A DNA stretch of 64,000 nt from the NCBI GenBank assembly GCA_965204735.1, contig OZ242008.1:704001-768000 (forward strand). Direction: 5' to 3'. Each line of letters begins with the position of its first letter. Position 1 is the stretch's first letter. Shown in pieces: positions 37,825 to 58,499 of this stretch. The notes beneath the pieces are model-generated. The model was not told the origin of the DNA. It searched no databases and saw nothing but the letters and a program-made list of their open reading frames with translations. This DNA is from Longimicrobiales bacterium. Lineage in GTDB: Bacteria > Gemmatimonadota > Gemmatimonadetes > Longimicrobiales > Gaopeijiaceae. The position numbers and the translations under genes are program-made.

Positions 37825-39243
37825 TCAGCGCCTGCGGATCCGGCCGCCGGGGTAGGCCACCGGGCTCTCGTTGCCGTCGGCCCCTACCGCCGCCACGCCG
37901 AAAAGGTAGTTGTCGATGACCAGCCCTTCCAGCGTGAACGACGTTCGGTTGCCCACCCATCGGGAGCGTTGCCACCGGGGCGCCGTGGTGTCCCGCCAGT
38001 AGACCTTGTAGCCGGCAAGTCGAGGGTCGTCCACGGCTTCCCACTCCAGTGCGGCGGACGGCCGCACGGCGCCGCCGATCCGGACGTCGGACGGGGCGGG
38101 AGGCGCCCAGGCAAGCTGCGCCAGGACGGCCGCGTTGAGGGCGGTCATCTTGGCCGCGTAGTCGAAGTCGACCCCCTCCACCACGTCTCCGTAGGCGATG
38201 CCGTTCTCGGTGCGGAGGTCCTGATGCTGCCGCACGTAGTTCTCGTGCGTCTCCATGATGCGCACCGCCGGGAAGCCCGCGTCGTTGAAGGGCCGGTGGT
38301 GGCCGCCGCGGCCGAAGCGGTCCAGGCGGTAGATCATGATCGGGTCCAGGTTGGGGACGTATTCGTCGGCGGTGCGGGCCACGTAGCGCGCAAGCTGGCG
38401 CGAGGGTCCGTCCACCTCGCCGCCGTACACTCGCCGGCGGGCGTGGTCCTGCTCGCTGTCGGTGGCGGGAACCGGCTCGGAGAAGACGCGGAAGGTGTTG
38501 TTCTCGATCACGCCGTCCACGCCCTCGATGTTGCCGATCATGTCGTTGTTGAGCACGCCGACGATCTCCCAGCCCTCCTCGCGGGCGACTCGTGCCATGT
38601 GCCGTCCGCCCCACAGCCCCTGCTCCTCGCCCGAAAGCCCGGCCAGGACCACCGTGCTGCCGAACTCGTGCCCCGCCAGCAGCCGCGCCGCTTCGACGGC
38701 GCCCGCCATGCCCGACGCGTTGTCGTTGGCTCCGGGAGCGTCGGACTCGGCGTCGTAGCTGCTGGACGCCCGCGAGTCGATGTCGCCGGACATGATCACG
38801 TAGCGGTTCGGCGCCACCGTCCCCCGCTTGATCGCCAGCACGTTGACCACCCACGTGTCCTGGGGGATGCGGGGGCTGTCCTCGGCGGTCACCAGGCTCC
38901 GCTGGTAGACGACTTCGTAGCAGCCGCCGCACGCCGCCGAGATGCGGTCGAACTCGGCCTTGATCCAGCGGCGGGCCGCCCCGATGCCGCGGATCTCCGA
39001 CAGGGTGTCCGAGAAGGTGTTGCGGGTGCCGAACCCCGCCAGCCGGCGGATGTCGGCCTCGACGCGCTCGGGGGACGCCGCCTCCACGATCTCGTAGATG
39101 CGGGGGTCCACTTCGGGGGGCGACGCCTGGGCGGCTGCGGGGCGAACGGCCCCTGTCGCGACGGCGAGGACGGCAAAGGCGGCGAGGAGCGCCGGCGGGA
39201 CGAGCCCGGCGAGCGTCGCGGCAGGGTTGGTCGGATAGCTCAT
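37825..39243 (-). CDS. M28 family metallopeptidase, secreted
   Basis: LAGFGTR, SGDIDSR, APGANDNASG, SGEEQGL.G, NNDMIG, GRGGHH; signal peptide; Fn3-like C-terminus. Confidence 0.9.
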   Translation of the reverse strand: MSYPTNPAATLAGLVPPALLAAFAVLAVATGAVRPAAAQASPPEVDPRIYEIVEAASPERVEADIRRLAGFGTRNTFSDTLSEIRGIGAARRWIKAEFDRISAACGGCYEVVYQRSLVTAEDSPRIPQDTWVVNVLAIKRGTVAPNRYVIMSGDIDSRASSSYDAESDAPGANDNASGMAGAVEAARLLAGHEFGSTVVLAGLSGEEQGLWGGRHMARVAREEGWEIVGVLNNDMIGNIEGVDGVIENNTFRVFSEPVPATDSEQDHARRRVYGGEVDGPSRQLARYVARTADEYVPNLDPIMIYRLDRFGRGGHHRPFNDAGFPAVRIMETHENYVRQHQDLRTENGIAYGDVVEGVDFDYAAKMTALNAAVLAQLAWAPPAPSDVRIGGAVRPSAALEWEAVDDPRLAGYKVYWRDTTAPRWQRSRWVGNRTSFTLEGLVIDNYLFGVAAVGADGNESPVAYPGGRIRRR

Positions 39244-39482
39244 CTGGCTCTTCCTGCTTGATTGGAGGTGCCCGGTCCGGCTGCCTTGCCAGTGCTTGAC
39301 ATGCGGGCGCCGCCCGGGCGAAGCTTGCGGAAGCGGCGCATCCTGACTTGGTTGCGGGAGCTGGAGCGGGAGGGCGGCAAGATGGAGAACGTCCGGGCGG
39401 TGCTGCAACCTTCTGTCGGACAACTCGGGCCAGGGAGCATGGAGCGATGAAGGTGGCCGGCCGGCGGAGGCCGTAGAGGCGG

Positions 39483-41063
39483 ATGCGCTACTTCAACACG
39501 TCCGGTCCGGTCGTGGCGGACGACCACTACCACGTCCCGCCCCTCGACCGACTCGACCTTGCCGAGGTCCGGGAGCTGATCGACGACCAGCGGTACTTCG
39601 TGCTTCACGCCCCCCGGCAGACCGGCAAGACGTCGGCCCTGCTGGCGCTCCAGGACCTGCTCAACGCGGAGGGCGGTTGCCGCTGCGTCTACGTCAACGT
39701 CGAAGGCGCCCAGGCGATGCGCGAAGACGTGGAGCGCGCGACTCGGGTCATGCTGGGCCAGATGGCCTTGCGGGCTCGGGACGCGCTTGGCGACGACTTC
39801 TTGTCCGGCGCATGGTCCGGCATCGCCGACGAGTTCCGGGAGGGTGCGCTGGGCGAGGCCCTGTCGCGTTGGGCGGAGGCCGACGAGAGGCCGCTGGTGC
39901 TGCTGATCGACGAGATCGACTCGCTGGTGGGCGACACGCTCCTGTCGGTGCTGCGTCAGCTTCGCGCAGACTATCCCCACCGGCCCGCCAGGTTCCCCCA
40001 GAGCGTGGTCCTGTGCGGTGTCCGGGACGTGCGCGACTACCGCATCTGGTCCAGCTCGGCGAAGACGATGGTCACGGGCGGCAGCGGCTTCAACATCGTG
40101 GCCGAGTCCCTGCGCCTGGCCGACTTCTCCCAGGCCGAGGTGCGCGACCTGCTCGGACAGCACACCGAAGAGACCGGCCAGCCGTTCACCGAAGCCGCGC
40201 TGGACGCGGTCTGGACCCAGACCCAGGGCCAGCCGTGGCTCGTCAACGCCCTGGCCTACGAGACCTGCTTCCGCGGCGACCTGGCCGCCGACCGGTCGCG
40301 ACCCGTGACCGAGGCGGACGTGCTGGATGCCCGCGAGCGGTTGATCCAGCGTCGCGACACCCACCTGGACCAGCTGACCGACAAGCTGCGGGAGGACCGC
40401 GTCCGGCGGGTCGTCGAGCCGCTCCTCGTGGGCGGCGAAGGGTTCGATGCCACGGCCGACGACATCGAGTACGTGCAGGACCTGGGCTTGGTCGCCCGAG
40501 ACGCTCCGCTCCGCTTGGCCAACCCGATCTACGCGGAGGCCGTGCCTCGCCAGCTCACGTGGCCGACCCAGCTCAAGATTCGGGAGGACCCGGCGTGGTA
40601 CGTGGACGCCGACGGCGCGTTGCTGCTGGACAAGCTGCTGGCGCGCTTCCAGGAGTTCTTCCGCGAGAACGCCGAGAGCTGGGTCGAGCGGTTCGACTAC
40701 AAAGAGGCGGGACCGCACCTGCTGCTGCAGGCGTTCTTGCAGCGGGTTGTCAACAGGGGCGGGCGGGTCGAGCGGGAGCACGGGCTGGGCCGAGGGCGCG
40801 CGGACCTGCTGATCCGGTGGCCGGAGGGCGACGAAGCGCGCAGCTACGTGGTCGAGTGCAAGGTTCGCCACGACCGCCGGGGCCTGGAGCGCACCGTGGC
40901 CAAGGGGGTGGAGCAGACGGCGGCCTACATGGACCGCTGCGGGGCCGAAGCGGGGCACCTGGTCGTCTTCGACCGCAGCGACGAGCGCAGCTGGGACGAG
41001 AAGGTCTTCCGCGACGTCCGCACCGCCGAGAGCGGGGCCGAGATCGCCGTGTGGGGGATGTGA
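39483..41063 (+). CDS. P-loop ATPase + C-terminal PD-(D/E)XK nuclease, copy 1
   Basis: Walker A HAPRQTGKTS, Walker B LLIDEID, GRADLLIRW...VVECKV. Confidence 0.9.
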   Translation: MRYFNTSGPVVADDHYHVPPLDRLDLAEVRELIDDQRYFVLHAPRQTGKTSALLALQDLLNAEGGCRCVYVNVEGAQAMREDVERATRVMLGQMALRARDALGDDFLSGAWSGIADEFREGALGEALSRWAEADERPLVLLIDEIDSLVGDTLLSVLRQLRADYPHRPARFPQSVVLCGVRDVRDYRIWSSSAKTMVTGGSGFNIVAESLRLADFSQAEVRDLLGQHTEETGQPFTEAALDAVWTQTQGQPWLVNALAYETCFRGDLAADRSRPVTEADVLDARERLIQRRDTHLDQLTDKLREDRVRRVVEPLLVGGEGFDATADDIEYVQDLGLVARDAPLRLANPIYAEAVPRQLTWPTQLKIREDPAWYVDADGALLLDKLLARFQEFFRENAESWVERFDYKEAGPHLLLQAFLQRVVNRGGRVEREHGLGRGRADLLIRWPEGDEARSYVVECKVRHDRRGLERTVAKGVEQTAAYMDRCGAEAGHLVVFDRSDERSWDEKVFRDVRTAESGAEIAVWGM

Positions 41064-42667
41064 TGTCGCCCCCAGACCCGTCGGCGATGCGCCGCTTCAA
41101 CAGATCCGGTCCGGTAGTGGAGGGGCGCCACTACTGCATCGCGCCCCTCGACCGACTCGACCTTGCCGAGGTCCGGGAGCTGATCGACGACCAGCAGTAC
41201 TTCGTGCTTCACGCCCCCCGGCAGACCGGCAAGACGTCGGCCTTGCTGGCGCTCCAGGACCTGCTCAACGCGGAGGGCGGCTGCCGCTGCGTATACGTCA
41301 ACGTCGAAGGCGCCCAGGCGATGCGCGAAGACGTGGAGCGCGCGACTCGGGTCATGCTGGGCCAGATGGCCTTGCGGGCTCGAGACGCGCTTGGCGACGA
41401 CTTCTTGTCCGGCGCATGGTCTGGCATCGCCGACGAGTTCCGCGACGGTGCGCTGGGAGCGGCCCTGACCCTCTGGGCCGAGGCCGACGCAAGGCCGCTG
41501 GTGCTGCTGATCGACGAGATCGACTCGCTGGTGGGCGACACGCTCCTGTCGGTGCTGCGCCAGCTTCGCGCTGGCTACGACATGCGGCCCGTCAGGTTCC
41601 CCCAGAGCGTGATCCTGTGCGGAGTCCGGGACGTGCGCGACTACCGCATCTGGTCCAGCTCGGAGAAGACGATGGTTGCGGGTGGCAGCGCCTTCAACAT
41701 CAAGGCCGAGTCCCTGCGCCTGGGCGACTTCTCCAAGGACGATGTGCACGACCTGCTCGGACAGCACACCGAGGAGACCGGCCAGCTGTTCACCGAAGCC
41801 GCGCTGGACGCGATCTGGACCCAGACCCAGGGCCAGCCGTGGCTGGTCAACGCCTTGGCCTACGAGACGTGCTTTCGCGGCGAGTTGGCCGCCGACCGGT
41901 CGCGACCCGTGACCGAGGCGGACGTGCTGGATGCCCGCGAGCGGTTGATCCAGCGTCGCGACACGCACCTGGACCAGCTGACCGACAAGCTGCGCGAGGA
42001 CCGCGTCCGGCGGGTCGTCGAGCCGCTCCTCGTGGGCGGCGAAGGGTTCGATGCCACGGCCGACGACATCGAGTACGTGCAGGACCTGGGCTTGGTCGCC
42101 CGAGACGCGCCGCTCCGCTTGGCCAACCCGATCTACGCGGAGGTCGTGCCTCGCCAGCTCACGTGGCCGACCCAGCTCAAGATTCGGGAGGACCCGGCGT
42201 GGTACGTGGACGCCGACGGCGCGTTGCTGCTGGACAAGCTGCTGGCGCGCTTCCAGGAGTTCTTCCGCGAGAACGCCGAGAGCTGGGTCGAGCGGTTCGA
42301 CTACAAGGAGGCCGGACCGCACCTGCTGCTGCAGGCGTTCTTGCAGCGGGTCGTCAACAGCGGCGGGCGGGTCGAGCGGGAGCACGGGCTGGGCCGAGGG
42401 CGCGCGGACCTGCTGATCCGGTGGCCGGAGGGCGACGAAGGGCGCAGCTACGTGGTCGAGTGCAAGGTTCGCCACGACCGCCGGGGCCTGGAGCGGACCG
42501 TGGCCGAGGGGGTGGAGCAGACGGCGGCGTACATGGACCGTTGCGGGGCCGAAGCGGGGCACCTGGTCGTCTTCGACCGCAGCGACGAGCGCAGCTGGGA
42601 CGAGAAGGTGTTCCGCGACGTCCGCACCGCCGAGAGCGGGGCCGAGATCGCTGTGTGGGGGATGTGA
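41063..42667 (+). CDS. P-loop ATPase + PD-(D/E)XK nuclease, copy 2
   Basis: Same motifs; TGATG overlap with copy 1 (alternative ATG at 41087). Confidence 0.9.
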   Translation: MSPPDPSAMRRFNRSGPVVEGRHYCIAPLDRLDLAEVRELIDDQQYFVLHAPRQTGKTSALLALQDLLNAEGGCRCVYVNVEGAQAMREDVERATRVMLGQMALRARDALGDDFLSGAWSGIADEFRDGALGAALTLWAEADARPLVLLIDEIDSLVGDTLLSVLRQLRAGYDMRPVRFPQSVILCGVRDVRDYRIWSSSEKTMVAGGSAFNIKAESLRLGDFSKDDVHDLLGQHTEETGQLFTEAALDAIWTQTQGQPWLVNALAYETCFRGELAADRSRPVTEADVLDARERLIQRRDTHLDQLTDKLREDRVRRVVEPLLVGGEGFDATADDIEYVQDLGLVARDAPLRLANPIYAEVVPRQLTWPTQLKIREDPAWYVDADGALLLDKLLARFQEFFRENAESWVERFDYKEAGPHLLLQAFLQRVVNSGGRVEREHGLGRGRADLLIRWPEGDEGRSYVVECKVRHDRRGLERTVAEGVEQTAAYMDRCGAEAGHLVVFDRSDERSWDEKVFRDVRTAESGAEIAVWGM

Positions 42668-44268
42668 TGTCGCCCCCAGGCCCGCCGGCGGTGCGCCGCT
42701 TCAACAGGTCCGGTCCGGTAGTGGAGGGGCGCCACTACTGCATCGCTCCCCTCGACCGACTCGACCTTGCCGAGGTCCGGGAGCTGATCGACGACCAGCA
42801 GTACTTCGTGCTTCACGCCCCCCGGCAGACCGGCAAGACGTCGGCCTTGCTGGCGCTCCAGGACCTGCTCAACGCGGAGGGCGGCTGCCGTTGCGTCTAC
42901 GTCAACGTCGAAGGCGCACAGGCGATGCGCGAAGACGTGGAGCGCGCGACTCGGGTCATACTGAGCCAGATGGCTCGCCAGGCACGGCGAACGGGCGACG
43001 ACTTCCTGACCGGGGCATGGTCTGAGATCGCCGCCGAACACGGCGCTGATGCGCTGGGCGAGGCCCTGTCGCGCTGGGCCGAGGCCGACGAGAGGCCGCT
43101 GGTGCTGCTGATCGACGAGATCGACTCGCTGGTGGGCGACACGCTCCTGTCGGTGCTGCGCCAGCTTCGCGCAGACTATCCCCACCGGCCCGCCAGGTTC
43201 CCCCAGAGCGTGATCCTGTGCGGCGTCCGCGACGTGCGCGACTGTCGCATCTGGTCCAGCTCGGCAAAGACGATGGTCACGGGCGGCAGCGGCTTCAACA
43301 TCGCGGCCGAGTCCCTGCGCTTGGGCGACTTCTCCCGGGACGAGGTGCACGACCTGCTCGGACAGCACACCGAAGAGACCGGCCAGCCGTTCACCGAAGC
43401 CGGGCTGGACACGATCTGGACCCAGACCCAGGGCCAGCCGTGGCTCGTCAACGCCCTGGCCTACGAGACGTGCTTTCGCGGCGAACTAGCGAAGGACCGG
43501 TCCCGCCCAGTGACCGAGGCGGACGTGCTGGACGCCCGCGAGCAGCTGATCCAGCACCGCGACACCCACCTGGACCAGCTGACCGACAAGCTGCGCGAGG
43601 ACCGCGTGTGGCGAGTCGTCGAACCGCTCCTGACCGGCGCCAGCGAGTCCAGCTACACCGCTCGGGACGTGGAGTACGTTCGGGACCTGGGCCTGATCGC
43701 CCACGCCCCCCCGATCCGCATGGCCAACCCCATCTACGCCGAGGTCGTGCCTCGGGAGCTGACTTGGCTGGCCCAGGACGACCTGCCGCACGACCCAGCC
43801 TGGTACGTGGACGCCTCCGGCGCCTTGCGCCTGGGCAAGCTGCTCGAAGCGTTCCAGGAGTTCTACCGCGAGAACTCGGAGCACTGGGTCGAGCGCTACG
43901 GCTTCAAGGAGGCGGGCCCGCAGCTGCTCTTGCAGGCGTTCCTGCAGCGGGTCGTCAACAGCGGCGGACGGATCGAGCGGGAGTACGCGCTGGGCGGTGG
44001 TCGCACCGACCTGCTGATCGTGTGGCCGCAGAGCGGGCGCGCGAGCAAGCATGTGGTCGAATGCAAGGTTCGCCACGAGCGCCGGGGCCGGGAGCGGACC
44101 GTGGCCGAAGGCGTGGAGCAGACGGCGGCCTACATGGACCGTTGCGGGGCCGAGGCCGGGCACCTGGTCGTCTTCGACCGCAGCGACGAGCGCAGCTGGG
44201 ACGAGAAGGTGTTCCGCGACGTCCGCACCGCCGAGAGCGGGGCCGAGATCGCAGTGTGGGGGATGTGA
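42667..44268 (+). CDS. P-loop ATPase + PD-(D/E)XK nuclease, copy 3
   Basis: Same motifs; TGATG overlap with copy 2; GRTDLLIVW...VVECKV. Confidence 0.9.
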   Translation: MSPPGPPAVRRFNRSGPVVEGRHYCIAPLDRLDLAEVRELIDDQQYFVLHAPRQTGKTSALLALQDLLNAEGGCRCVYVNVEGAQAMREDVERATRVILSQMARQARRTGDDFLTGAWSEIAAEHGADALGEALSRWAEADERPLVLLIDEIDSLVGDTLLSVLRQLRADYPHRPARFPQSVILCGVRDVRDCRIWSSSAKTMVTGGSGFNIAAESLRLGDFSRDEVHDLLGQHTEETGQPFTEAGLDTIWTQTQGQPWLVNALAYETCFRGELAKDRSRPVTEADVLDAREQLIQHRDTHLDQLTDKLREDRVWRVVEPLLTGASESSYTARDVEYVRDLGLIAHAPPIRMANPIYAEVVPRELTWLAQDDLPHDPAWYVDASGALRLGKLLEAFQEFYRENSEHWVERYGFKEAGPQLLLQAFLQRVVNSGGRIEREYALGGGRTDLLIVWPQSGRASKHVVECKVRHERRGRERTVAEGVEQTAAYMDRCGAEAGHLVVFDRSDERSWDEKVFRDVRTAESGAEIAVWGM

Positions 44269-45872
44269 TGTCGCCCCCAGGCCCGTCGGCGATGCGCTAC
44301 TTCAACACGTCCGGTCCAGTAGTGGCGGACGACCACTACCATGTCCCGCCCCTCTCTCGGGTCGACTTGGCCGAACTCCGTCTGTTGATCGACCAGAAGC
44401 GCTACTTCGTGCTTCACGCCCCCCGGCAGACCGGCAAGACGTCGGCCCTGCTTGCGCTCCAGGACCTGCTCAACGCGGAAGGCGGCTACCGCTGCGTCTA
44501 CGTCAACGTCGAAGGCGCACAGGCGATGCGCGAAGACGTGGAGCGCGCGACTCGGGTCATACTGGGCCAGCTGGCCTTGCGGGATCGAGACGCGCTTGGC
44601 GACGACTTCTTGTCCGGCGCATGGTCTGGCATCGCCGACGAGTTCCGCGACGGTGCGCTGGGAGCGGCCCTGACCCTCTGGGCCGAGGCCGACGCAAGGC
44701 CGCTGGTGCTGCTGATCGACGAGATCGACTCGCTGGTGGGCGACACGCTCCTGTCGGTGCTGCGCCAGCTTCGCGCCGGCTACGACATGCGGCCCGTCAG
44801 GTTCCCCCAGAGCGTGATCCTGTGCGGAGTCCGGGACGTGCGCGACTACCGCATCTGGTCCAGCTCGGAGAAGACGATGGTCACGGGCGGCAGCGCCTTC
44901 AACATCAAGGCCGAGTCCCTGCGCCTGGGCGACTTCTCCAAGGACGAGGTGCGCGACCTGCTCGGACAGCACACCGAAGAGACCGGCCAGCCGTTCACCG
45001 AAGCCGGGCTGGACGCGATCTGGACCCAGACCCAGGGCCAGCCGTGGCTCGTCAACGCCCTGGCCTACGAGACGTGCTTTCGCGGCGAACTAGCGAAGGA
45101 CCGGTCCCGCCCAGTGACCGAGGCGGACGTGCTGGACGCCCGCGATCAGCTGATCCAGCGCCGCGACACCCACCTGGACCAGCTGACCGACAAGCTGCGC
45201 GAGGACCGCGTGTGGCGAGTCGTCGAACCGCTCCTGACCGGCGCCAGCGAGTCCAGCTACACCGCTCGGGACGTGGAGTACGTTCGGGACCTGGGCCTGA
45301 TCGCCCACGCCCCCCCGATCCGCATGGCCAACCCCATCTACGCCGAGGTCGTGCCTCGGGAGCTGACTTGGCTGGCCCAGGACGACCTTCCCCACGACCC
45401 AGCCTGGTACGTGGACGCCTCCGGCGCCTTGCGCCTGGGCAAGCTGCTCGAAGCGTTCCAGGAGTTCTACCGCGAGAACTCGGAGCACTGGGTCGAGCGC
45501 TACGGCTTCAAGGAGGCGGGCCCGCAGCTGCTCTTGCAGGCGTTCCTGCAGCGGGTCGTCAACAGCGGCGGACGGATCGAGCGGGAGTACGCGCTGGGCG
45601 GTGGTCGCACCGACCTGCTGATCGTGTGGCCGCAGAGCGGGCGCGCGAGCAAGCATGTGGTCGAATGCAAGGTTCGCCACGAGCGCCGGGGCCGGGAGCG
45701 GACCGTGGCCGAAGGCGTGGAGCAGACGGCGGCCTACATGGACCGTTGCGGGGCCGAGGCCGGGCACCTGGTCGTCTTCGACCGCAGCGACGAGCGCAGC
45801 TGGGACGAGAAGGTCTTCCGCGACGCCCGCACAGCCGAGAACGGCGCCGAGATCGCAGTGTGGGGAGCGTGA
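44268..45872 (+). CDS. P-loop ATPase + PD-(D/E)XK nuclease, copy 4
   Basis: Same motifs; TGATG overlap with copy 3; stop overlaps GTG of the SNF2 helicase. Confidence 0.9.
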   Translation: MSPPGPSAMRYFNTSGPVVADDHYHVPPLSRVDLAELRLLIDQKRYFVLHAPRQTGKTSALLALQDLLNAEGGYRCVYVNVEGAQAMREDVERATRVILGQLALRDRDALGDDFLSGAWSGIADEFRDGALGAALTLWAEADARPLVLLIDEIDSLVGDTLLSVLRQLRAGYDMRPVRFPQSVILCGVRDVRDYRIWSSSEKTMVTGGSAFNIKAESLRLGDFSKDEVRDLLGQHTEETGQPFTEAGLDAIWTQTQGQPWLVNALAYETCFRGELAKDRSRPVTEADVLDARDQLIQRRDTHLDQLTDKLREDRVWRVVEPLLTGASESSYTARDVEYVRDLGLIAHAPPIRMANPIYAEVVPRELTWLAQDDLPHDPAWYVDASGALRLGKLLEAFQEFYRENSEHWVERYGFKEAGPQLLLQAFLQRVVNSGGRIEREYALGGGRTDLLIVWPQSGRASKHVVECKVRHERRGRERTVAEGVEQTAAYMDRCGAEAGHLVVFDRSDERSWDEKVFRDARTAENGAEIAVWGA

Positions 45873-48800
45873 CGGACGTCCCCCGCCCCGGAATGCTGGC
45901 CACCGTCCGCAACCGGCGCGGCGTGGTGGCGGCGGTGGAACCCCACGACGGCGAGCGCGGGCGGGTCCACCTGGTCCACTTGGAGTACGCGGACCATCAG
46001 TCGCCCCGAGAGGAGCGCCTTCTGTGGGAGATCGAAGGCAGGCCGTCTCTCCTGGAGCCCAACGCCCTGCCCAATCCGGCCCGTTCGCCCATGGCCGCGC
46101 CCGACTTCGACGCCATGCTTCGGGCGGCTCGGTGGACGGCCCTCTCGCCCTACCTCGACCCGTCCGGCGACGGCCGCCCGGCCCAGGAGCCCCTGGCCAG
46201 CCCCTTCCACGGCGGCGTCCGCATCGAGAACTACCAGCTGGTTCCTCTCTTGAAGGCGTTGCGCATGCCCCGGGTCAACCTGCTCATCGCCGACGACGTG
46301 GGGCTGGGCAAGACCGTGGAAGCCGGGTTGGTCCTGTCCGAGCTGCTGCTGCGCCGCCGCATCCGCCGGGTGCTGGTGCTGACGCCCGCGTCGCTCCGCC
46401 GTCAGTGGAGCGAGGAGATGCAGGAGAAGTTTTCGTTGCCCTTCGAGATCGTGGACCGGCTGAGCACGGAGAAGCTGCGCCGCCGCCAAGGCATGGACGC
46501 CAACCCCTGGCGCTCCTTCAGCCGCGTCGTGGCGTCGTACCACTACCTGCGCCAGCCGGACGTGCTGGAGCACTTCCGGGCGGCCTGCGACCACCAGACT
46601 CGCGAAGGCTCTCCACACCTGCCATGGGACCTGCTGATCGTCGACGAGTGCCACAACCTTATGCCGTCCCCGTTCGGCGAAGACAGCGAGCTGTGCAAGA
46701 TGCTGCGCTTTGTGGCCCCGCGCTTCGAGCACCGGCTCTTCCTGTCGGCCACGCCCCACAACGGCCACACCCGCTCGTTCACCGGGCTGCTGGAGATGCT
46801 GGACCCGGTCCGCTTCTCGCGCACCGGCGAGATGACGCCCGCCATGCGCGGACGCATCGACGACGTGGTGATTCGCCGGCTCAAGCGCGACATCAACGCG
46901 ACCGCGACCGGCGAGGGGACCGGCCCCCGCTTCTGCACCCGGTGCCCGCCCAAGGCCCTGACGCTCGCCTTCAGCCCGCACGAGACCCGCCTTTCTGCCG
47001 CCTTCGACGCCTTTCGCAGCGCCATCCGGGAGCAAGTCGCGGAAGGAGGCAAGCGCCGTCGCCGCGCCGGTGCGTTCGCGGTCGAGATCTTCGGCAAGCG
47101 GCTGCTCTCCTGCCCGACCGCCTTCGCCGAGTCGTGGAGCCGCGCCAAGCAGGGGTTCGAGGACCCGCAGGCCGCCGGCGACCGACAGCTTGCGACGGCG
47201 GAACGCTCGCTGCGCCAAGACACGGGCGACGATCGCGAGGCCCAGCAGCGCCAGGCCACGGCGTCGACGGTCGTAGGGGCGTGGCTGAAGAACTTCGCGG
47301 GCGACTTGACGGCCGAGGTCCATGGGATTGAAGACGCTCTTGCCCGGCTGGAGTTCGACTTGGACGCCGGCGCTGCGCCCGTCGTGTCCCAAACGCCCAT
47401 TGCCGACGCCCGCTTCGACCGGCTCTTGAAGCTCGTCGAGGGCCGTCTGCGCGGCGAGGGCCGGTTCCGCGGTGGCGAGCGGCTGGTCGTCTTCACGGAG
47501 TACAAGACGACCCTGGATTATGTGGCCCGCCGCCTGCGGGAGCGCTACGGAGACGAACGTATCCTGACCCTGTTCGGCGCGGGCGGCCCCGGCGGGATGG
47601 ACGAGTCGGGACGCGAGCACGTCAAGGCGGCGTTCAACGACCGCGTGTCCCCCGTGCGCATCCTCGTGGCCACCGACGCCGCGTCGGAGGGGCTCAACCT
47701 GCACCGCACGGCCCGCTACCTGCTCCACTGGGACTGTCCCTGGAACCCGTCTCGGCTGGAGCAGCGGAACGGCCGCCTGGACCGCTACGGCCAAGCCCGC
47801 GACGTGACCGTCCACCACTTCGTGAGCGACACGGACCCGGACTTGCGCTTTCTGGACCACGTGGTTCGCAAGGCCGACGACATCCGGGAGGACCTGGGGT
47901 CGGTCAACGAGGTCTTCGACCGTGCCGTTCACCGCCGCTTGGTTCGGGGCGAGGACGCCGCCGCCGTGCAGGCCGGGCTGGACTTGGAAGTGGAGGCGGC
48001 GCGAGGCCGTGCCAGCCTTGGCGGCGACGGAGCCGCCGACCGGACGTCCAACGGGACATCCGATGGGACATCAAACGGCGAAAATCGGGACATTTCGCTG
48101 GACATTTTAGCCGCCGAAATCGATTTCGACCCCGAAGCGGTCCGGGACACGCTGGAGGCGGCGATGGCTGACACCGCCGGGCGACCGCAGCTCGAGCCCG
48201 CCGCGCGCGCCCACGACACGGGGAGCAGCAGCAACGGCCGCGACGGCCTTCATCGCCTTGTGAACCCCGGCTTGCCCGGCTGGAGCCAAGTCGTGGACGA
48301 GTCCGTCCGCCGCCCCGGACTCGGCGGGGCGCAGGGACCGGTTCCCGCACTGGCTTTCAGTCCAAAGCCGTTCATCAAGAAGCGGGGCGACTTGAGCGTC
48401 TTTCGGCCGCGCAAGGATGCGTTGTTCGTCCACTTGGCCCACCCGATCATGCGTCATGCCTTGGGCGTGCTGGCGAAGCGGCGATACCCGGGCGCCGGGA
48501 GCGAGGCGTCGCGCTGGACCGCGCGTTACGGCGGCGTGCCGGAAGGAGCCGAGGCGGCGGTTCTGCTCAGCGTGGAGGAGATCGGCGTGAACAAGCTGCG
48601 GGAGACGTTCCACCGCTGGGTGCGGACGGTCGTGTTCCCGATGCGCGACGGCGAACTTGGATCGCCCCTTCCCCACGCGCCCGCCCGGTCGCTCCTGGGC
48701 GCAAGCGAGTGCGAGGACGCGGCTCGCCGGGAACAGGCCGCCGAGATCCTGGAAGCCGCCGCGCCGGCGCTCAAGCAGTGGATGCGCGATCACAGGCGCG

Positions 48801-49207
48801 CGCTCGGCGAGCGCTTGGCCGCCCAGCTCGAAGACGACGGCGCCGCCGCCCGGAAGCGCGAGCGCGACAGCTACCGACAGCGCCTGGCCGAAGTTTCCGA
48901 ACTGATCACACGCACCACGATGGACAGGTTGGGCCGTGAAATCGAGCGACTCAAGGGGCAGCGCGACCAAGGACAGCTCTTCAACGAAGCCGAGCGCTTG
49001 GCCGAGTTGGAGCGATCTATCGAGGAATGGGAAGAAGAGCTGAAGCGCCGTCGCTTCCATCACGACGAGATTCGCGACCAGCTCCAGCGAGAGCGCGACC
49101 GCACAGTGAAACGGCTGTTTCCCAAGCGCTTCGCCTTGGCGGGGACCGCCCAACTCTTTCCGGTGGCCGTGGAAGTGCGCCTTCCGGCAACGCGGCGTCG
49201 TCCGTGA
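45869..49207 (+). CDS. drmD: DISARM DrmD-like SNF2 helicase
   Basis: YQLVPLLKALRMPRVNLLIADDVGLGKT, LIVDECH, LSATPHNG, ATDAASEGLNL, WNPSRLEQRNGRLDRYGQ. Confidence 0.85.
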   Translation: MTDVPRPGMLATVRNRRGVVAAVEPHDGERGRVHLVHLEYADHQSPREERLLWEIEGRPSLLEPNALPNPARSPMAAPDFDAMLRAARWTALSPYLDPSGDGRPAQEPLASPFHGGVRIENYQLVPLLKALRMPRVNLLIADDVGLGKTVEAGLVLSELLLRRRIRRVLVLTPASLRRQWSEEMQEKFSLPFEIVDRLSTEKLRRRQGMDANPWRSFSRVVASYHYLRQPDVLEHFRAACDHQTREGSPHLPWDLLIVDECHNLMPSPFGEDSELCKMLRFVAPRFEHRLFLSATPHNGHTRSFTGLLEMLDPVRFSRTGEMTPAMRGRIDDVVIRRLKRDINATATGEGTGPRFCTRCPPKALTLAFSPHETRLSAAFDAFRSAIREQVAEGGKRRRRAGAFAVEIFGKRLLSCPTAFAESWSRAKQGFEDPQAAGDRQLATAERSLRQDTGDDREAQQRQATASTVVGAWLKNFAGDLTAEVHGIEDALARLEFDLDAGAAPVVSQTPIADARFDRLLKLVEGRLRGEGRFRGGERLVVFTEYKTTLDYVARRLRERYGDERILTLFGAGGPGGMDESGREHVKAAFNDRVSPVRILVATDAASEGLNLHRTARYLLHWDCPWNPSRLEQRNGRLDRYGQARDVTVHHFVSDTDPDLRFLDHVVRKADDIREDLGSVNEVFDRAVHRRLVRGEDAAAVQAGLDLEVEAARGRASLGGDGAADRTSNGTSDGTSNGENRDISLDILAAEIDFDPEAVRDTLEAAMADTAGRPQLEPAARAHDTGSSSNGRDGLHRLVNPGLPGWSQVVDESVRRPGLGGAQGPVPALAFSPKPFIKKRGDLSVFRPRKDALFVHLAHPIMRHALGVLAKRRYPGAGSEASRWTARYGGVPEGAEAAVLLSVEEIGVNKLRETFHRWVRTVVFPMRDGELGSPLPHAPARSLLGASECEDAARREQAAEILEAAAPALKQWMRDHRRALGERLAAQLEDDGAAARKRERDSYRQRLAEVSELITRTTMDRLGREIERLKGQRDQGQLFNEAERLAELERSIEEWEEELKRRRFHHDEIRDQLQRERDRTVKRLFPKRFALAGTAQLFPVAVEVRLPATRRRP

Positions 49208-52200
49208 CGACCGCCTCGCGCGCTGGTCAAGAGGTCCCCGGCTGGCGAGACCTGCGTCACGGCGGGCTCCTGCTGGACGGCCAACGTCTGGCCGACTTGG
49301 CGCCGCACACGCCCGACCCCTTGGACGGCTGGACCGAGCATCTGCTGCGGCGCCGCGCCACCGACCTGCGCCGCCACGCCACGGACGGAGCCCCGGCGTT
49401 CGCGAAGTTCGTGCTGGAGGAGGTGTGCGGGTTCGACGCCGGCACGGGCGCGTGGACCCGTGGCGCCAAGGTCTCGCCCGAGTGGAGTCGTCGAGCCCCG
49501 ACCGGAGAGGTCGTCAAGCCGCGCCAGCTGTGGGAGGGTCTCGGGGGCGGACGTCTGCCGGTGTTCATGGAACCCGGACCGCGCGTCGGGATCGGCAAGG
49601 GCCGCCGAACGGTCAGCCGGGTGCTCGGATGGCTTCGCGCCGGCAACGACCACTTGGCCCTGATCACCAACGGCAAGCAGTGGCGACTCCTCTTCGCCGG
49701 GTTGGACTTCGAGGCGTGGTGCGAGTGGGACATGGACCTGTGGTTCCAGGACGGCAAGCCCGCGCCCCAGGTGGACGCGCTCCGGACGCTGTTGCAGCCC
49801 AAGCTCTGGACTCCCGCGTCAAAGGACGCCGCCTCGCCTCTGCTCCAAGCGATTCGGGACACGCGCAAGGGACAGGCCGAGCTCTCGGAGACGCTGGGCG
49901 AGCGCGTGCGGGAAGCCGTCGAGGTCCTGATCCAGGGCCACGGAGAGGCGCTCAAGGAGCAGTGCTCCGACGTGGACCCCGCCGACATCTACCGGGCCGC
50001 CTGCCGAGTCGCGATGCGCCTCGTGGTGATCCTCTTCGCCGAGGCCCGGGACCTGTTGCCGAGGGACAACCCCGTCTACCACGCCAGCTACGGCCTCAAC
50101 GGCCTGATGGAGCGGCTGCAGTCGGCGGCCGGCGGCCATGCCCTGTCCCGCCGCTTCAGCGCATGGCCCCAGGTGCAGGCCCTCTTCACCTTGGTGCACG
50201 ACGGCTCCCACCTTCCCCAGATGCCGGTCAAGGACTACGGCGGCGAGCTCTTCAAGCCCGGCAGCGCGGAGTCGGCCGACGGCCTCTCCCGAGCCTTGGC
50301 GGTGTTCGAGACCGCCTGCTTGAAGCACGACGTACTGCCGGACGACGACGTTCGGCGCATGCTGGAGCGGATGACGCTCACGCGGGTCCGAATCCGCCAG
50401 GGCCGGGGCGGCACATGGGTCACCGTGCCCGTGGACTTCTCGGACCTGTCCTCCGACTACATCGGCATACTGTACGAAGGCTTGCTGGACTACGAGCTCA
50501 AGACGTCGCCGCCCGGCGAGCCCGTCATCTTCCTGGCGGCGGGCCACTACCCGGCATTGCCGTTGTCGCGCCTGGAGGCGATGGACGACAAGGCGATCAA
50601 GGCGCTGTTCAGCAACCTGAAGAAGGATGTTGCGACGGACGACGACGGACCGGAGGAGTCGGAGGGCCAAGCCGTTGCCAAAGGCGAGGCGAACGAAGCC
50701 GAAGGCGCCGCCGGGCCACTCGGCGACCCCAGCGAGGCTTCGCCGGACGGCGCCGACCCGCGATTTGCCAACCGCACCCGCGCCGAGAAGTGGGCGCGGA
50801 GGGCCGCGCACGTGGCTGGACTGGTCAAGAAACCCCGTGGCAAGCTCACCCCGGAGTGCCGACTGAAGGCCGAGGACGACTTGGCCCGAAAGGCCCGCAA
50901 GCTGGTCGCTCGCGTCGTGTTGCCCGGCGAGTGGTACTTGGTGCGGTGGGGCGGCACCCGAAAGGGGTCGGGCAGCTTCTACACGCGACCCGGCTTGGTC
51001 GTGCCCACGGTGCAGCGCACGTTGCGGCCTTTGGCCTACGACCCTCCGCTCGGCAAGGACGGCGAACCCGACCGAGACGCTCCTGCCGCAAAGTGGACGC
51101 CCAAGCGCCCCGAGCAGATCCTTGAACTGAAGGTGTGCGACCCGGCCTGTGGTTCGGGCGCGTTCGTGCTGTCGGCTTTGCGCTTCCTGACCAACGCGCT
51201 CTTCGCTTCTCTTCAGCGCCACGGACGCATCGAGCCGGACGGGGAGCGCACGCTGATTCGGTTGCTGGGCGCGCCGACCGAACACGAGCCGCACACCGAG
51301 CGTTTGGGCGACGAGATGATCCCCTGTCCGCAGGACCATGACGACTTCGAGCCCCGTCTGCGGGCCGTGCTGCGCCGCCACGTGGTGGAGCGCTGCATCT
51401 ACGCCGTGGACATCGACCCCTTGGCCGTCGAGCTCTGCCGCCTGTCGCTGTGGATCGAGACCATGGACCGGGGCCTGCCCTTCGGCTTCTTGGATCACAA
51501 GGTCAAGTGCGGCAACTCCCTCGTGGGCGCGTGGCTCGACCAGTTCGCCCACTACCCGGTCATGGCCTGGAAGAACCGCGAAGGCGGTGACAAGAACCAC
51601 GGCAACGGCATCCACTTCAAGAAGGGCGCCCGGACGAAAGCGATCAAGGCGTTCGTGAAGGACCGGTTGACGCCGGACTTGGCCTCGTTCCTCCGCGACC
51701 CCGACCTCTTCCTCGACGACCACCTGAAGCGCCACGACAACGCCCACCGCAGCGCGCTGGCCGTTCTGGAGAAAATGCACGCCCTGCCCGTGCAAGACGC
51801 GACGGAAAGGGCGCGGCTCTACCGCGACGAATTCGTGGGCTCGTCGGAGTGGTTGGCACTCAAGGAGGCGATGGACCTGTGGTGCGCCTGTTGGTTCTGG
51901 CCCGCCGACGACATCGCGTGCGCACCGTTGCCCTTGAGCTTCGCCGATCCGCCCCAAGAGACACGAGAGATCGCACGGCGCCTATCCGCCAAGATCCGTT
52001 TTTTCCACTGGGAGCTAGAGTTTCCGGATGTGTTCTGGGAAGAGGGCTCTGGCTTCAACGCGGTCCTCGGGAACCCCCCGTGGGACACCCGTCAGCCCAA
52101 CTCTAAAGAGTACTTTTCGAACATCGATCCAATCTATAGCTCCTACCCAAAACAGGAAGCATTGAGACGCCAAAGGGAATTTTTTTGTTGCTACGTCACA

Positions 52201-54297
52201 GAGCAACAATGGCTTGACTACACTGCCAGTTTTGCAAACGAATCACACTATATGAAATGCGTCTCGGATCCTTTTGGCGATTTCGCCAAGATCGTCAAGA
52301 AATCATCAATAAGATACAACAGTCATGCATGCACTCCACATCCGTATGTACACAGAGGTACAGGAAAGGCATACACTTACAAGTTGTTCTTGGAATACGC
52401 GCATGCCTTGTGTCGGACTAGCGGCAGGATCGGACTCATTGTACCATCGGGGGTTTATTCCGATAAAGGCACTAGTGCGCTCAGAGACTTGTTCTTGTCC
52501 TGTTGCCAATGGGAATGGCTGTTCGGATTGGAAAACCGAGATCGTATTTTTCCAATTTCAAGCAATTACAAGTTCAATCCCGTCATCATTGAGAAGGGTG
52601 GTTCTACTCGTGCGATCCGCACTGCCTTTATGCGTCGGAAGCTTGATGATTGGGAGGAGGCCGAAAGGATCGTAACCCAGTACTCCTACCAGCAGATCGA
52701 AAAATTCAATCCAAAGAGCCAAGCACTTTTGGAAATTCAGTCTAAACGTGACCTTGACATACTAGAGACGATGTCCGCCAGTGGTTGCCCCCTTGGCGAT
52801 GGCGGTGGAGTTGCCCCGGTTCGTGGTCCAGTAGAATCGGCGTGGCGATTTAGATATGCTACTGAGTTTAACATGACTAGCGATTCCAAGTTGTTTCCCT
52901 TAGTCCACCACTGGGAGGCGAAGAGGTACAGGCCCGACGAGTACAGTCGGTGGTTACACGGCGAATGGCTGCCCATCCACGAGTTGTGGGCGACAATGGG
53001 CATTGACCATTCTCATTCCCCTTCTCCACATCGGGATCGGAGCTTACGGTGTGCCCAGCCTCCATACGACATCTTGCCCATTCCGAGGGCCAAGGTGCCC
53101 CCCGGCATAATCCTGTCTCGCACGGGAGATGCTTGGATTCATGAGGATCAAGTGCAGGGCGTGGCACTGCCACTTATCGAAGGTAAGATGATGTATGTTG
53201 GTACATGGGCCGCGAGTGGCCTTCAATTCGACTCGACTGACCACCGGATTGATATCACCCCGAAGTACATGATCGATTCCCGTCACATTCGGAACGCTAG
53301 CGGACCGAAGCCGACGGGTAGGATAGCATTTCGACTTATCTCACGCAGTACAAATGAACGCACTGTCGTCGCCTCTGTAATTCCCAGATGGTACCCCTGC
53401 GCAAACTCGCTGGGGGTCTTGAATGTAGATCACCGTCTCGGTATTACGGACCTCTTGGAGCTCAGTGCCTATATGTCAAGCATTGTACTTGACTGGTCGG
53501 TTCGCCAGCGGATGGCGGGAGCTAATCTGAACTGGCATATTGTAGAATCCGTTAGCGTGCCCTCACCCAAATCTCTGTCCGGCGAGCTTGTTGCAAAATT
53601 CGCCAGCCATATGCTGTCAGGCATTCAGTTTGCGGCGGAATGGCTGTGTCTTGTGCATGACGTGCATCGTCCACAACCGTTTCTGGGCACTCTTCATGAA
53701 CGCACGCGCGTTTCTGTCATAGCTGATGTTGTGACAGCCGCTGTAATGGGATACTCGGAAAACGACGTTCGGCATGTCTTGGACGGATGTGATCTTCCTA
53801 GAGAAGCAATAGACAGTCGGGCGAGGAAGAAAGTACTGTCCAGAAAAGGATTCTGGCGTGTGGATCAGAGTCGACACCCCGAATGTCGTCGCACTGTTCT
53901 AACACTTGTGGCGTTTAGAGACTTGCAGTCCAGAATCAATAGTAGTGCGAATCAAGATGAAGGCATCCGGGCGTGGTTGAACCAGAACGACGGCGAAGGT
54001 TGGCGCATTCCCGAGGTCATTCGCCTAGCGGACTACGGTCTCGGAAATGACGGACGCGCCGAACGTCTGCAGCCAGTCGCCAGCAGTCTTGGTCCCAGAT
54101 TCTACAACTGGCAGATTGCCCAGGGCACCGAGGAGGCGTGGCAAGAATGTCACCTGCACGCTCGGAACCTACTCGGAAGGGAGGAGTATGCTAGATTTCT
54201 GAGGGACTTAGTAGCTCGTTGTCTTCAAGAAGGTTACACTGATATCAGTCGTTTGTACAACGACTACACGCTTAGCTTGGTCCGTGACCCGTCATGA
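49204..54297 (+). CDS. DrmMI/Type IIG-like N6-adenine DNA methyltransferase (large, with target-recognition region)
   Basis: GILYEGLL, RKGSGSFYT, CDPACGSG (motif I), FFHWELEFP, LGNPPW (motif IV); GTG overlaps drmD stop. Confidence 0.88.
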   Translation: MTTASRAGQEVPGWRDLRHGGLLLDGQRLADLAPHTPDPLDGWTEHLLRRRATDLRRHATDGAPAFAKFVLEEVCGFDAGTGAWTRGAKVSPEWSRRAPTGEVVKPRQLWEGLGGGRLPVFMEPGPRVGIGKGRRTVSRVLGWLRAGNDHLALITNGKQWRLLFAGLDFEAWCEWDMDLWFQDGKPAPQVDALRTLLQPKLWTPASKDAASPLLQAIRDTRKGQAELSETLGERVREAVEVLIQGHGEALKEQCSDVDPADIYRAACRVAMRLVVILFAEARDLLPRDNPVYHASYGLNGLMERLQSAAGGHALSRRFSAWPQVQALFTLVHDGSHLPQMPVKDYGGELFKPGSAESADGLSRALAVFETACLKHDVLPDDDVRRMLERMTLTRVRIRQGRGGTWVTVPVDFSDLSSDYIGILYEGLLDYELKTSPPGEPVIFLAAGHYPALPLSRLEAMDDKAIKALFSNLKKDVATDDDGPEESEGQAVAKGEANEAEGAAGPLGDPSEASPDGADPRFANRTRAEKWARRAAHVAGLVKKPRGKLTPECRLKAEDDLARKARKLVARVVLPGEWYLVRWGGTRKGSGSFYTRPGLVVPTVQRTLRPLAYDPPLGKDGEPDRDAPAAKWTPKRPEQILELKVCDPACGSGAFVLSALRFLTNALFASLQRHGRIEPDGERTLIRLLGAPTEHEPHTERLGDEMIPCPQDHDDFEPRLRAVLRRHVVERCIYAVDIDPLAVELCRLSLWIETMDRGLPFGFLDHKVKCGNSLVGAWLDQFAHYPVMAWKNREGGDKNHGNGIHFKKGARTKAIKAFVKDRLTPDLASFLRDPDLFLDDHLKRHDNAHRSALAVLEKMHALPVQDATERARLYRDEFVGSSEWLALKEAMDLWCACWFWPADDIACAPLPLSFADPPQETREIARRLSAKIRFFHWELEFPDVFWEEGSGFNAVLGNPPWDTRQPNSKEYFSNIDPIYSSYPKQEALRRQREFFCCYVTEQQWLDYTASFANESHYMKCVSDPFGDFAKIVKKSSIRYNSHACTPHPYVHRGTGKAYTYKLFLEYAHALCRTSGRIGLIVPSGVYSDKGTSALRDLFLSCCQWEWLFGLENRDRIFPISSNYKFNPVIIEKGGSTRAIRTAFMRRKLDDWEEAERIVTQYSYQQIEKFNPKSQALLEIQSKRDLDILETMSASGCPLGDGGGVAPVRGPVESAWRFRYATEFNMTSDSKLFPLVHHWEAKRYRPDEYSRWLHGEWLPIHELWATMGIDHSHSPSPHRDRSLRCAQPPYDILPIPRAKVPPGIILSRTGDAWIHEDQVQGVALPLIEGKMMYVGTWAASGLQFDSTDHRIDITPKYMIDSRHIRNASGPKPTGRIAFRLISRSTNERTVVASVIPRWYPCANSLGVLNVDHRLGITDLLELSAYMSSIVLDWSVRQRMAGANLNWHIVESVSVPSPKSLSGELVAKFASHMLSGIQFAAEWLCLVHDVHRPQPFLGTLHERTRVSVIADVVTAAVMGYSENDVRHVLDGCDLPREAIDSRARKKVLSRKGFWRVDQSRHPECRRTVLTLVAFRDLQSRINSSANQDEGIRAWLNQNDGEGWRIPEVIRLADYGLGNDGRAERLQPVASSLGPRFYNWQIAQGTEEAWQECHLHARNLLGREEYARFLRDLVARCLQEGYTDISRLYNDYTLSLVRDPS

Positions 54298-57915: not shown

Positions 57916-57986
57916 CAAATAGTGAGTGGTGACCAAGTTCGTTGGATGCCCGGACCGCCCATTTCCCCGGCAAGAGGAGGCCGCAG

Positions 57987-58499
57987 ATGGGCTACACCGC
58001 GAAAGCAGTCGCGAATCACTTCCTGGACTTCGGACGAACCCGCACGAAAGAGATATCGCCGCTGATGATTCAGAAGCTCGTGTACATCTCTCACGGCTGG
58101 CATCTCGCGCTCAGCGGAGGGAAGCCATTGGTCTCGGACGAATACGTCGAGGCATGGGAGTACGGCCCGGTCTTCCCGTCCGTTTACCACGAGTTCAAGC
58201 ACTACGGCGCGTCGCCCATACTCGACTACGCGACCGACTTCGAGCTCGTGGGAACCGACTTCAAGCTGGTTACGCCTCGTGTCGAGACGGACGACGTCAA
58301 TGCGGTCGCGCTCCTTGGACGAGTGTGGAAGGTCTACGGCGACTTCAGCGGTCTGCAACTGTCCGGCATGGCCCACGCGCCGGGCACGCCGTGGGACATC
58401 GTGTGGAACAAGAACAGGGGCATGAGAAACGTGCACATTCCCAACGAGCTGATTGGCAAGTACTACCTGCGAATCATGGAGAGCCGAAATGGCAATTGA
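57987..58499 (+). CDS. Panacea (DUF4065/SocA-like) antitoxin
   Basis: AVANHFL...ISPLMIQKLVY.SHGWHL......EAWEYGPVFPSVYHEFK...LSGMAH..GTPW. Confidence 0.88.
   Translation: MGYTAKAVANHFLDFGRTRTKEISPLMIQKLVYISHGWHLALSGGKPLVSDEYVEAWEYGPVFPSVYHEFKHYGASPILDYATDFELVGTDFKLVTPRVETDDVNAVALLGRVWKVYGDFSGLQLSGMAHAPGTPWDIVWNKNRGMRNVHIPNELIGKYYLRIMESRNGN

Follow-up and report, generated by a model that had tools for sequence, protein, structure and literature searches.

A tandem array of putative ATPase-nuclease genes in a Longimicrobiales bacterium, very probably a recombinational mosaic of old modules

The DNA analyzed here (the window) is a stretch of 64,000 nt from a Longimicrobiales bacterium of the phylum Gemmatimonadota (GCA_965204735.1, contig OZ242008.1, positions 704,001 to 768,000). 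Its forward strand carries four tandem genes for a putative ATPase-nuclease, seen as stop-free open reading frames (ORFs) at 39483-41063, 41087-42667, 42691-44268 and 44292-45872 with spacers of 23 nt, which confirms the four intact copies that an earlier note had described from the sequence. At each copy's stop codon, TGATG offers an in-frame ATG start that adds eight residues to the next copy, and the stop of copy 4 overlaps the GTG start of drmD. Given these overlaps throughout, we read the array as one translationally coupled operon. Copy 1 (39483..41063) encodes 526 aa with a nucleoside triphosphatase (NTPase) domain, a GQPW lid, a winged helix and a PD-(D/E)XK domain, and near-identical whole proteins occur in other assemblies (P0124, 99%; P0123, 98%). 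Copy 2 (41063..42667) probably starts at 41063, overlapping the stop of copy 1, with an inner ATG at 41087; the longer start is also used in the database gene call P0129, which supports it. Copy 3 (42667..44268) probably starts at 42667, the GTG at 42691 then being internal, and has Cys at the otherwise invariant Tyr186, an allele also found in other assemblies. Copy 4 (44268..45872) is the terminal copy, with the C-terminus VWGA, and P0007 and P0135 are 98% identical to it. A scan of 39100-46200 for sigma-70-like promoters found 0 with 0.1 expected, and Rfam gave no match in the window.

AAA_22 is the sole Pfam domain above cut-off, and the best sequence match to any solved structure reached only E 0.017. 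The predicted model (predicted local distance difference test, pLDDT, 85.5) shows an NTPase with Walker A at residues 42-51 and Walker B at 140-146, a helical insert at about 76-135, the GQPW lid, a winged helix (293-365) and a C-terminal alpha/beta domain (PD-(D/E)XK, 410-526). Residues 1-356 of the model resemble the archaeal STAND-type (signal transduction ATPases with numerous domains) proteins PAB2304 (2qen; Z 20.4, root-mean-square deviation (rmsd) 3.7, 312 aligned) and SSO1545 (2fna; Z 17.8, rmsd 4.1), with which they appear to share NTPase, helical lid and winged helix. Those chains, of about 350 residues, are 14-15% identical to the array proteins and lack any equivalent of the fused nuclease. 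The next structural matches, at Z 14-15, were a plant resistosome, Cdc6/Orc1, TnsC and MuB. Folded alone, the C-terminal domain matched CinB (Z 8.7), BamHI (Z 8.1) and McrC (Z 7.6), and most of its 50 structural rows are PD-(D/E)XK nucleases. The catalytic residues E432/D441/E458/K460 are kept in 46 of 51 array copies, and Walker A, HAPRQTGKT, is invariant or nearly so in 105 sequences. A Gly-x-Pro motif lies in the helical lid of STAND-type ATPases, and GQPW is kept in 50 of the 51 copies. From the predicted model, we class the protein as an NTPase of STAND/Orc1-like type that carries a winged helix and a putative PD-(D/E)XK nuclease.

The earlier note had seen in the four copies a balanced mosaic of three blocks, each in two versions, with the combinations AXP, BYP, BXQ and AYQ. 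These combinations are confirmed by the sites at which two copies agree against the other two. There are 161 such sites. Copies 1+4 agree at 16, of which 12 lie within nt 7-55; copies 1+3 agree at 20, spread over nt 297-649; and copies 1+2 agree at 125, of which 123 lie at nt 716-1470. Along the gene the sites form 6 runs where 60.9 would be expected, a clustering matched by 0 of 5000 shuffles, and the evenly spread variation named in the note as the opposite case did not occur. Taken by itself, the 5' stretch of 700 nt yields 4 runs (p 5e-5). The controls, three quartets made up of dispersed paralogues, also cluster, but weakly (52 vs 61, 64 vs 81 and 66 vs 77 runs; p 0.03, 0.001 and 0.02), and with clustering this much stronger in the array, the mosaic is real.

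There are at least five blocks per gene, more than the three described earlier, and the full codes are A-l-u-X-P (copy 1), B-l-u-Y-P (copy 2), B-l-v-X-Q (copy 3) and A-s-u-Y-Q (copy 4). All blocks lie on the forward strand. Upstream of Walker A (39489..39593 in copy-1 coordinates) are A/B (nt 7-55) and l/s (nt 64-111). Both u/v and the first half of X/Y fall in the helical insert (39708..39887, aa 76-135), which connects strand 2 to the Walker B strand. The second half of X/Y follows Walker B (39968..40131, aa 162-217) and assorts independently of the first half in other assemblies. The P/Q block covers the winged helix, the linker and the first nuclease half, in its P version at 40280..40952 (copy 1) and 41884-42556 (copy 2) and in its Q version at 43485-44157 (copy 3) and 45089-45761 (copy 4), with about 69% amino-acid identity between versions. 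The segments once taken as private to copies 3 and 4 are instead further two-state blocks, recurring in other assemblies on both P and Q backgrounds.

The supposed balance did not hold. The blocks are very unequal, and identity is 95.0% for copies 1/2, 93.2% for copies 3/4 and 87-88% for the remaining four pairs, so that the array is better described as P,P,Q,Q with small exchanged N-terminal tracts. With 5-7 two-state blocks in four copies, the chance that all three pairings appear is 0.11-0.25. A balanced design is rejected on the unequal blocks, the extra blocks, the other combinations found elsewhere and this 11-25% chance expectation; the four-way balance of the window array is a snapshot that looks like chance.

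We examined as contigs four of the 21 sequencing runs listed, from four studies (X1; X2; X4, labelled sponge metagenome; X5, labelled marine metagenome), and the evidence rests on the 32 of 1642 pieces listed. Among these, the left edge of the array is present in X1 and X4 and the right edge into drmD in all four runs. The P block is also found in all four, Q-block pieces in X1, X2 and X4, and the tail-spacer-head junction into an A-type copy in X2, X4 and X5 (three studies). None of the pieces spans the whole array and none holds a junction into B-type copies; with no spanning piece, order and copy number in the source are not proven.

Other block combinations and copy numbers, which the earlier note had proposed to look for, were found. 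Homologue and cluster look-ups gave 26 proteins from other assemblies, and 24 were counted after dropping the fragments P0125 and P0136; these are 91-99% identical to some window copy, in clusters seeded with window-like proteins and from assemblies where short-read chimeras are possible. Their blocks occur in 15 combinations, of which the window lacks 12, and together with the four window proteins (28 in total) all four gametes occur for 13 of 15 block pairs. In the three-block code the 24 are AXP (9), AXQ (7), AYQ (4), BYQ (2), AYP (1) and BXQ (1), BYP (copy 2) being the sole window combination not recovered among them. Hybrid u/v inserts exist in other assemblies, which indicates varying breakpoints. 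When proteins are grouped by equal size of their contigs, each of the 7 multi-member sets, which are not independent of each other, comprises 2-3 copies, represents both P and Q, and includes a single terminal copy, recognisable by its VWGA end. Terminal copies are Q in 12 of 12 cases, internal ones in 3 of 13. In the sister species G002 (same genus), three copies and a 37-codon relic with the same spacers abut the same drmD (95% identical).

Trees were built from 24 of 36 aligned copies from G000 (the window genome), G002, G003 and G008. In the core (nt 406-870), copies cluster according to species, with support of 96/97 for the G000 array and 99/98 for the G003 arrays. The P/Q block rejects both species groupings (approximately unbiased test, p-AU 1e-56 and 1e-36), the P copies of three species forming one clade (100/99), and the helical insert likewise rejects both. 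To judge from these trees, the ATPase core is homogenised within species, and the P/Q and helical-insert variants predate the species split. The types are unevenly distributed: in G002, the orthologue of the array consists of Q copies throughout (Q,Q,Q) and another array contains just a third type, and both G003 arrays combine P and Q.

The comparison of tandem arrays covered 18, each with 2-5 copies, drawn from 11 genomes or contigs; three regions were left out because they had fewer than two long copies. Of all segments, the insert shows the lowest identity in 13 of the 18, and in 12 an adjacent pair exceeds the family-wide twofold rate of insert divergence, residues being treated as independent. 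In the array L029, for example, 30 of 59 insert residues differ against 1 of 464 elsewhere. The exceptional arrays vary instead at the N-terminus, winged helix or linker, and the five-copy array L221 displays a block mosaic comparable to that of the window. The helical insert is the cassette most often exchanged across the family, and these comparisons support module shuffling as a trait of the family as a whole.

The family comprises at least 8000 proteins at 90% clustering, with 1706 representatives at E <= 1e-30. Its distribution within the phylum is uneven, with members in 29 of 301 genomes and 6 of 127 genera, 4 of 5 genomes searched from other phyla have 18-28 matches, and the best named relative, L142 (79% identity), is labelled Longimicrobiales. 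Single copies are common, and one site holds a single copy in G000 and three in G003. No match was found in 50,697 phage records that would indicate a phage origin, and among 72,556 plasmid records 15 match, none above 42% identity. Transposon-like ends were considered and rejected, as the 600-nt flanks of copies (25 upstream, 24 downstream) share orthologous neighbours only, besides three G008 copies with 40-80 nt of upstream flank in common. Three full paralogues dispersed in the genome (d1, d2, d3) have 72-82% DNA identity to copies 1-4 and no identical tract of 60 nt or more with them, and do not qualify as recent donors, a role for which the note had proposed to search. A deleted family remnant (L004:6608-7140; G000:C1:2087607-2088118) is flanked by two Cas_GSU0053 genes (type I-G CRISPR), with IrrE-like and DUF4411 genes next to it. 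Some family members terminate directly behind the winged helix, at 341-369 aa, and have no nuclease (L027:7867-8973, L050:5392, L055:5679, L047:6277), possibly as natural nuclease-free forms or through recurrent truncation. In G327, about a dozen copies match query residues 1-450 only, resembling the L029 array with an insertion there, and possibly represent a subfamily with an extended loop inside the nuclease.

The array is very probably a recombinational mosaic, and the recombination or conversion between paralogues put forward in the note is supported by the block clustering, the tree conflict and the four-gamete results. Its shuffled modules also stood, and proved family-wide; a designed balanced set or a fixed hetero-oligomer did not, given the other combinations, the sets of 2-3 copies and the Q-only sister array. 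The old diverged modules are separated by nearly identical stretches, which lie around Walker A, around Walker B and at the C-terminal tail. Exchange in these conserved stretches has re-dealt old modules, with the core homogenised; acting between copies and between strains, it has also altered copy number. We infer that ordinary homologous recombination (gene conversion and unequal crossing-over) does the exchange, because no recombinase among the genes called in the window and no inverted sites were found, and the hybrid inserts vary in breakpoint. The helical insert, the winged helix-nuclease half and the N-terminal segment would set recognition or assembly, several versions of each module would be kept because each covers other foreign targets, and nucleotide binding would then license DNA cutting. 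We consider it probable that homologous recombination re-deals ancient specificity modules of a putative conflict nuclease in this way, and that selection on specificity maintains the modules. As the role of the array, defence is only slightly favored. The coupling to drmD and the transfer together with the island described below count for the specificity-module reading. Module shuffling may let this marine bacterium vary what these putative enzymes recognise. A further step, that this is an undescribed, widespread class of variable immune nucleases with an NLR-like (nucleotide-binding leucine-rich repeat) ATPase switch, an exchangeable sensor cassette within the ATPase fold and an exchangeable winged helix-nuclease half, ancient versions of both maintained across species by balancing selection, per-strain repertoires from recombination in tandem arrays, and a link to a DISARM-like island with a swapped methylase specificity region, is speculative, and we regard it as doubtful.

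The main rival is a neutral by-product, in which a selfish or loosely constrained family expands, conversion evens out segments that are still alike, diverged ones drop below the identity it requires and so persist, and the mosaic has no functional meaning; we hold this to be unlikely. Several observations weigh for it and against the specificity-module reading. The variable blocks coincide with the least conserved regions, the insert being the least conserved of the family (40% between arrays), so that diverged segments may simply escape conversion. The mean insert/rest ratio of the window array is 1.3 against 2.0 family-wide, which falls below expectation because P/Q divergence dominates. 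Most annotated copies outside the island sit among housekeeping genes, the genomes with 18-28 matches fit an expanding family, every G001 copy is broken, and anchoring at the ends would by itself lead one to expect A-type at the first position and Q-type at the last. Every mean ratio of nonsynonymous to synonymous rates (dN/dS) is below 1, which gives no sign of positive selection, and the P group was named only after the first tree had been seen. A net negative charge on both the helical insert and the winged helix (means -3.2 and -3.8) disfavours direct DNA readout and makes a protein ligand or subunit interface as likely as DNA. No PADLOC model matches the ATPase-nuclease, and NCBIfam gives it no name either. 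Yet P and Q are each under purifying selection across species (dN/dS 0.16-0.17) with twice that between them (0.33) at similar dS and no such gap in the core, by the Nei-Gojobori method on GC-rich sequences and non-independent pairs. Moreover, P and Q are both retained in all 7 multi-member contig sets, and the array, with its four intact copies, is coupled to a defence operon.

The same co-occurrence of P and Q, in the contig sets and in both G003 arrays, would be expected if P- and Q-type subunits (or all four) formed one operon-encoded complex, as would the translational coupling, and the closest folds include oligomeric initiator-clade ATPases. Such a fixed hetero-oligomer is nevertheless improbable because the orthologous G002 array is Q-only; the second G002 array has the third type alone, and combinations and copy numbers differ among assemblies, down to the site with three copies in G003 and one in G000. 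That strain variants of one or two genes were strung together by the assembly is very improbable. The genome is metagenome-assembled, no listed piece spans the array, the copy 2 combination is absent from the 24 other proteins, and in X1 the P-block contig has a depth of 129, about the flank level of 130-165, which hints weakly at a single P copy there, contig depths not being copy numbers. Against these stand the single 4.14-Mb contig with 98% completeness, the head-to-tail junctions from three studies and both array edges in independent runs, the orthologous array with identical spacers in another species, and 7 other contigs that each carry 2-3 distinct copies, a single one of them terminal. 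The least probable alternative, a programmed shufflon in which a site-specific recombinase or a cassette donor mechanism switches the modules, is largely refuted: block boundaries recur and the inter-copy spacer is conserved, but unlike in shufflons and invertible cassettes, no recombinase is found among the genes called in the window, all copies are complete direct repeats, the best inverted repeats have at most 33 nt and 70-82% complementarity and do not qualify as inverted recombination sites, and the hybrid u/v inserts imply variable breakpoints.

Among known families, the closest in character is DUF1703 (PF09820 AAA-ATPase_like plus PF08011 PDDEXK_9), which likewise combines an AAA+ module, a helical region and a C-terminal PD-(D/E)XK domain with recombining expansions, those of DUF1703 being lineage-specific and in symbionts; both families are functionally uncharacterised. 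The portion consulted of Siozios 2019 (PMC6387759) describes a DUF1703 expansion with intragenic recombination, 39% mean identity and no homogenisation, in contrast with tandem copies that are core-homogenised and keep trans-species modules. Three tests separate the families: PF09820 has no match in the four copies or the genome (control matches in 2 of 14 genomes), PF08011 stays below its cut-off (19.6-21.5 bits vs 25.5, copies 1 and 2), and Walker A is HAPRQTGKT here, the text seen of Knizewski 2007 (PMC1913061) giving RPRRFGKS for DUF1703. In relatives, 24 of 69 match PF08011 at E <= 0.05 (best 1.9e-6). By these comparisons, the window family is a sister family of DUF1703, in which recombining expansions are already known. 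In Orc1, as far as the part consulted of PMC3089459 goes, specificity is set by two DNA-binding parts, the ATPase insert (initiator-specific motif, ISM) and the winged helix. By topology, and for the insert by secondary structure, the main variable modules, two in number, would sit at corresponding places, which fits the specificity-module reading. Unlike in Orc1/Cdc6 and TnsC/MuB, they are net acidic, the nuclease is fused and there is no transposase or origin context. The Avs/bacterial NLR layout given in the portion seen of bioRxiv 10.64898/2026.10.19.760177 has an N-terminal effector, a central STAND and a C-terminal repeat sensor, unlike the present proteins with their C-terminal nuclease, absence of repeats and lack of a PADLOC match. 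A literature search that covered few subscription papers found no paper on the window family, its tested function or module shuffling, and the parts consulted of PMC7159879 and PMC10952713 hold nothing on the family.

The pattern itself is real and family-wide, and the symmetry of the window array is incidental. The arrays reveal three surfaces that evolution keeps different while the remainder is homogenised, and a vague "ATP-binding protein" becomes amenable to direct specificity experiments on natural modules. In plant NLR clusters and in the hsdS genes of type I restriction-modification (R-M), tandem paralogues exchange specificity modules and old alleles persist across species. If the modules are specificity determinants, the arrays would be the counterpart in bacteria of recombining NLR clusters, one that needs no dedicated recombinase; otherwise, they would be a clear natural case of conversion escape in gene expansion. 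Unlike NLR clusters and hsdS, they have no repeat sensor domain and no invertase, and the analogy is an evolutionary one. Leipe et al. in 2004, on STAND NTPases, and Zhang et al. in 2016, on NTPase+REase (restriction endonuclease) elements, may already discuss such expansions.

The array opens a defence-like island whose left border is a core-genome M28 peptidase gene (37825..39243, reverse strand). The DrmD-like SNF2 helicase coupled to copy 4 (45869..49207, forward, as are the genes below unless stated) scores 656 bits for NF038317 (cut-off 610) and is called DrmD by PADLOC. It is followed by a type IIG/DrmMI-like methylase ORF (49027..54297), whose true start is probably later; PADLOC gives 405 bits for DrmMI, with type IIG scoring higher. 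The 3' part of this gene (52200-54297; GC 0.52 and 0.54 at third codon positions, GC3) is 63% identical to the G002 orthologue, the island otherwise being 90-95%, and is a probable swapped specificity region. Further cargo consists of a Schlafen/AlbA_2 - HATPase_c_4 - TPR protein (54294..56264), also in the sister species, a HicA toxin gene (PF07927; 56384-56828, reverse), a SocA/Panacea antitoxin-like gene (57942..58499) and a DEAD + helicase C + DUF1998 (MZB) helicase, DruE-like, which closes the island (58558..64000, continuing beyond the window). A short ORF without a Pfam hit adjoins the HicA gene and is possibly its antitoxin. The DruE-like helicase reaches about 1990 aa, with a C-terminal Peptidase_S24-like domain (L005:51-2522). 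DISARM class I has separate drmA, drmB (DUF1998) and drmC (PLD, phospholipase D) genes beside drmD and drmMI. The island resembles DISARM class I/Druantia in its DrmD above cut-off, DrmMI/IIG methylase and DUF1998 helicase; separate drmA, drmB and drmC are absent among the genes called, with one fused DruE-like helicase instead, and to our knowledge the ATPase-nuclease array is not a DISARM component.

In G002, array and island lie between different core genes than in the window, which suggests that the cassette behaves as a mobile island. The G002 island has an extra AAA/nSTAND3-like gene after the AlbA_2 gene (L140:14575-15591, reverse), without window counterpart. Near the M28 peptidase (L137, L138, L136), other genomes carry an Eco57I-type methylase (G001), nucleotidyltransferase-HEPN and Fic genes (G002) or a ThiF gene (G003), with only a few genes between the peptidase and those of G001 and G002, and by its gene content this site is a hot spot for defence-type cargo. 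An ISNCY transposase gene (NF033593 above cut-off; 33447-34958, reverse) lies between leuS and an aminopeptidase gene, 4.5 kb left of the array. Two YhgA-like (Transposase_31) PD-(D/E)XK genes flank the region, at 22966-24099 of the window and at L005:8414-9463.

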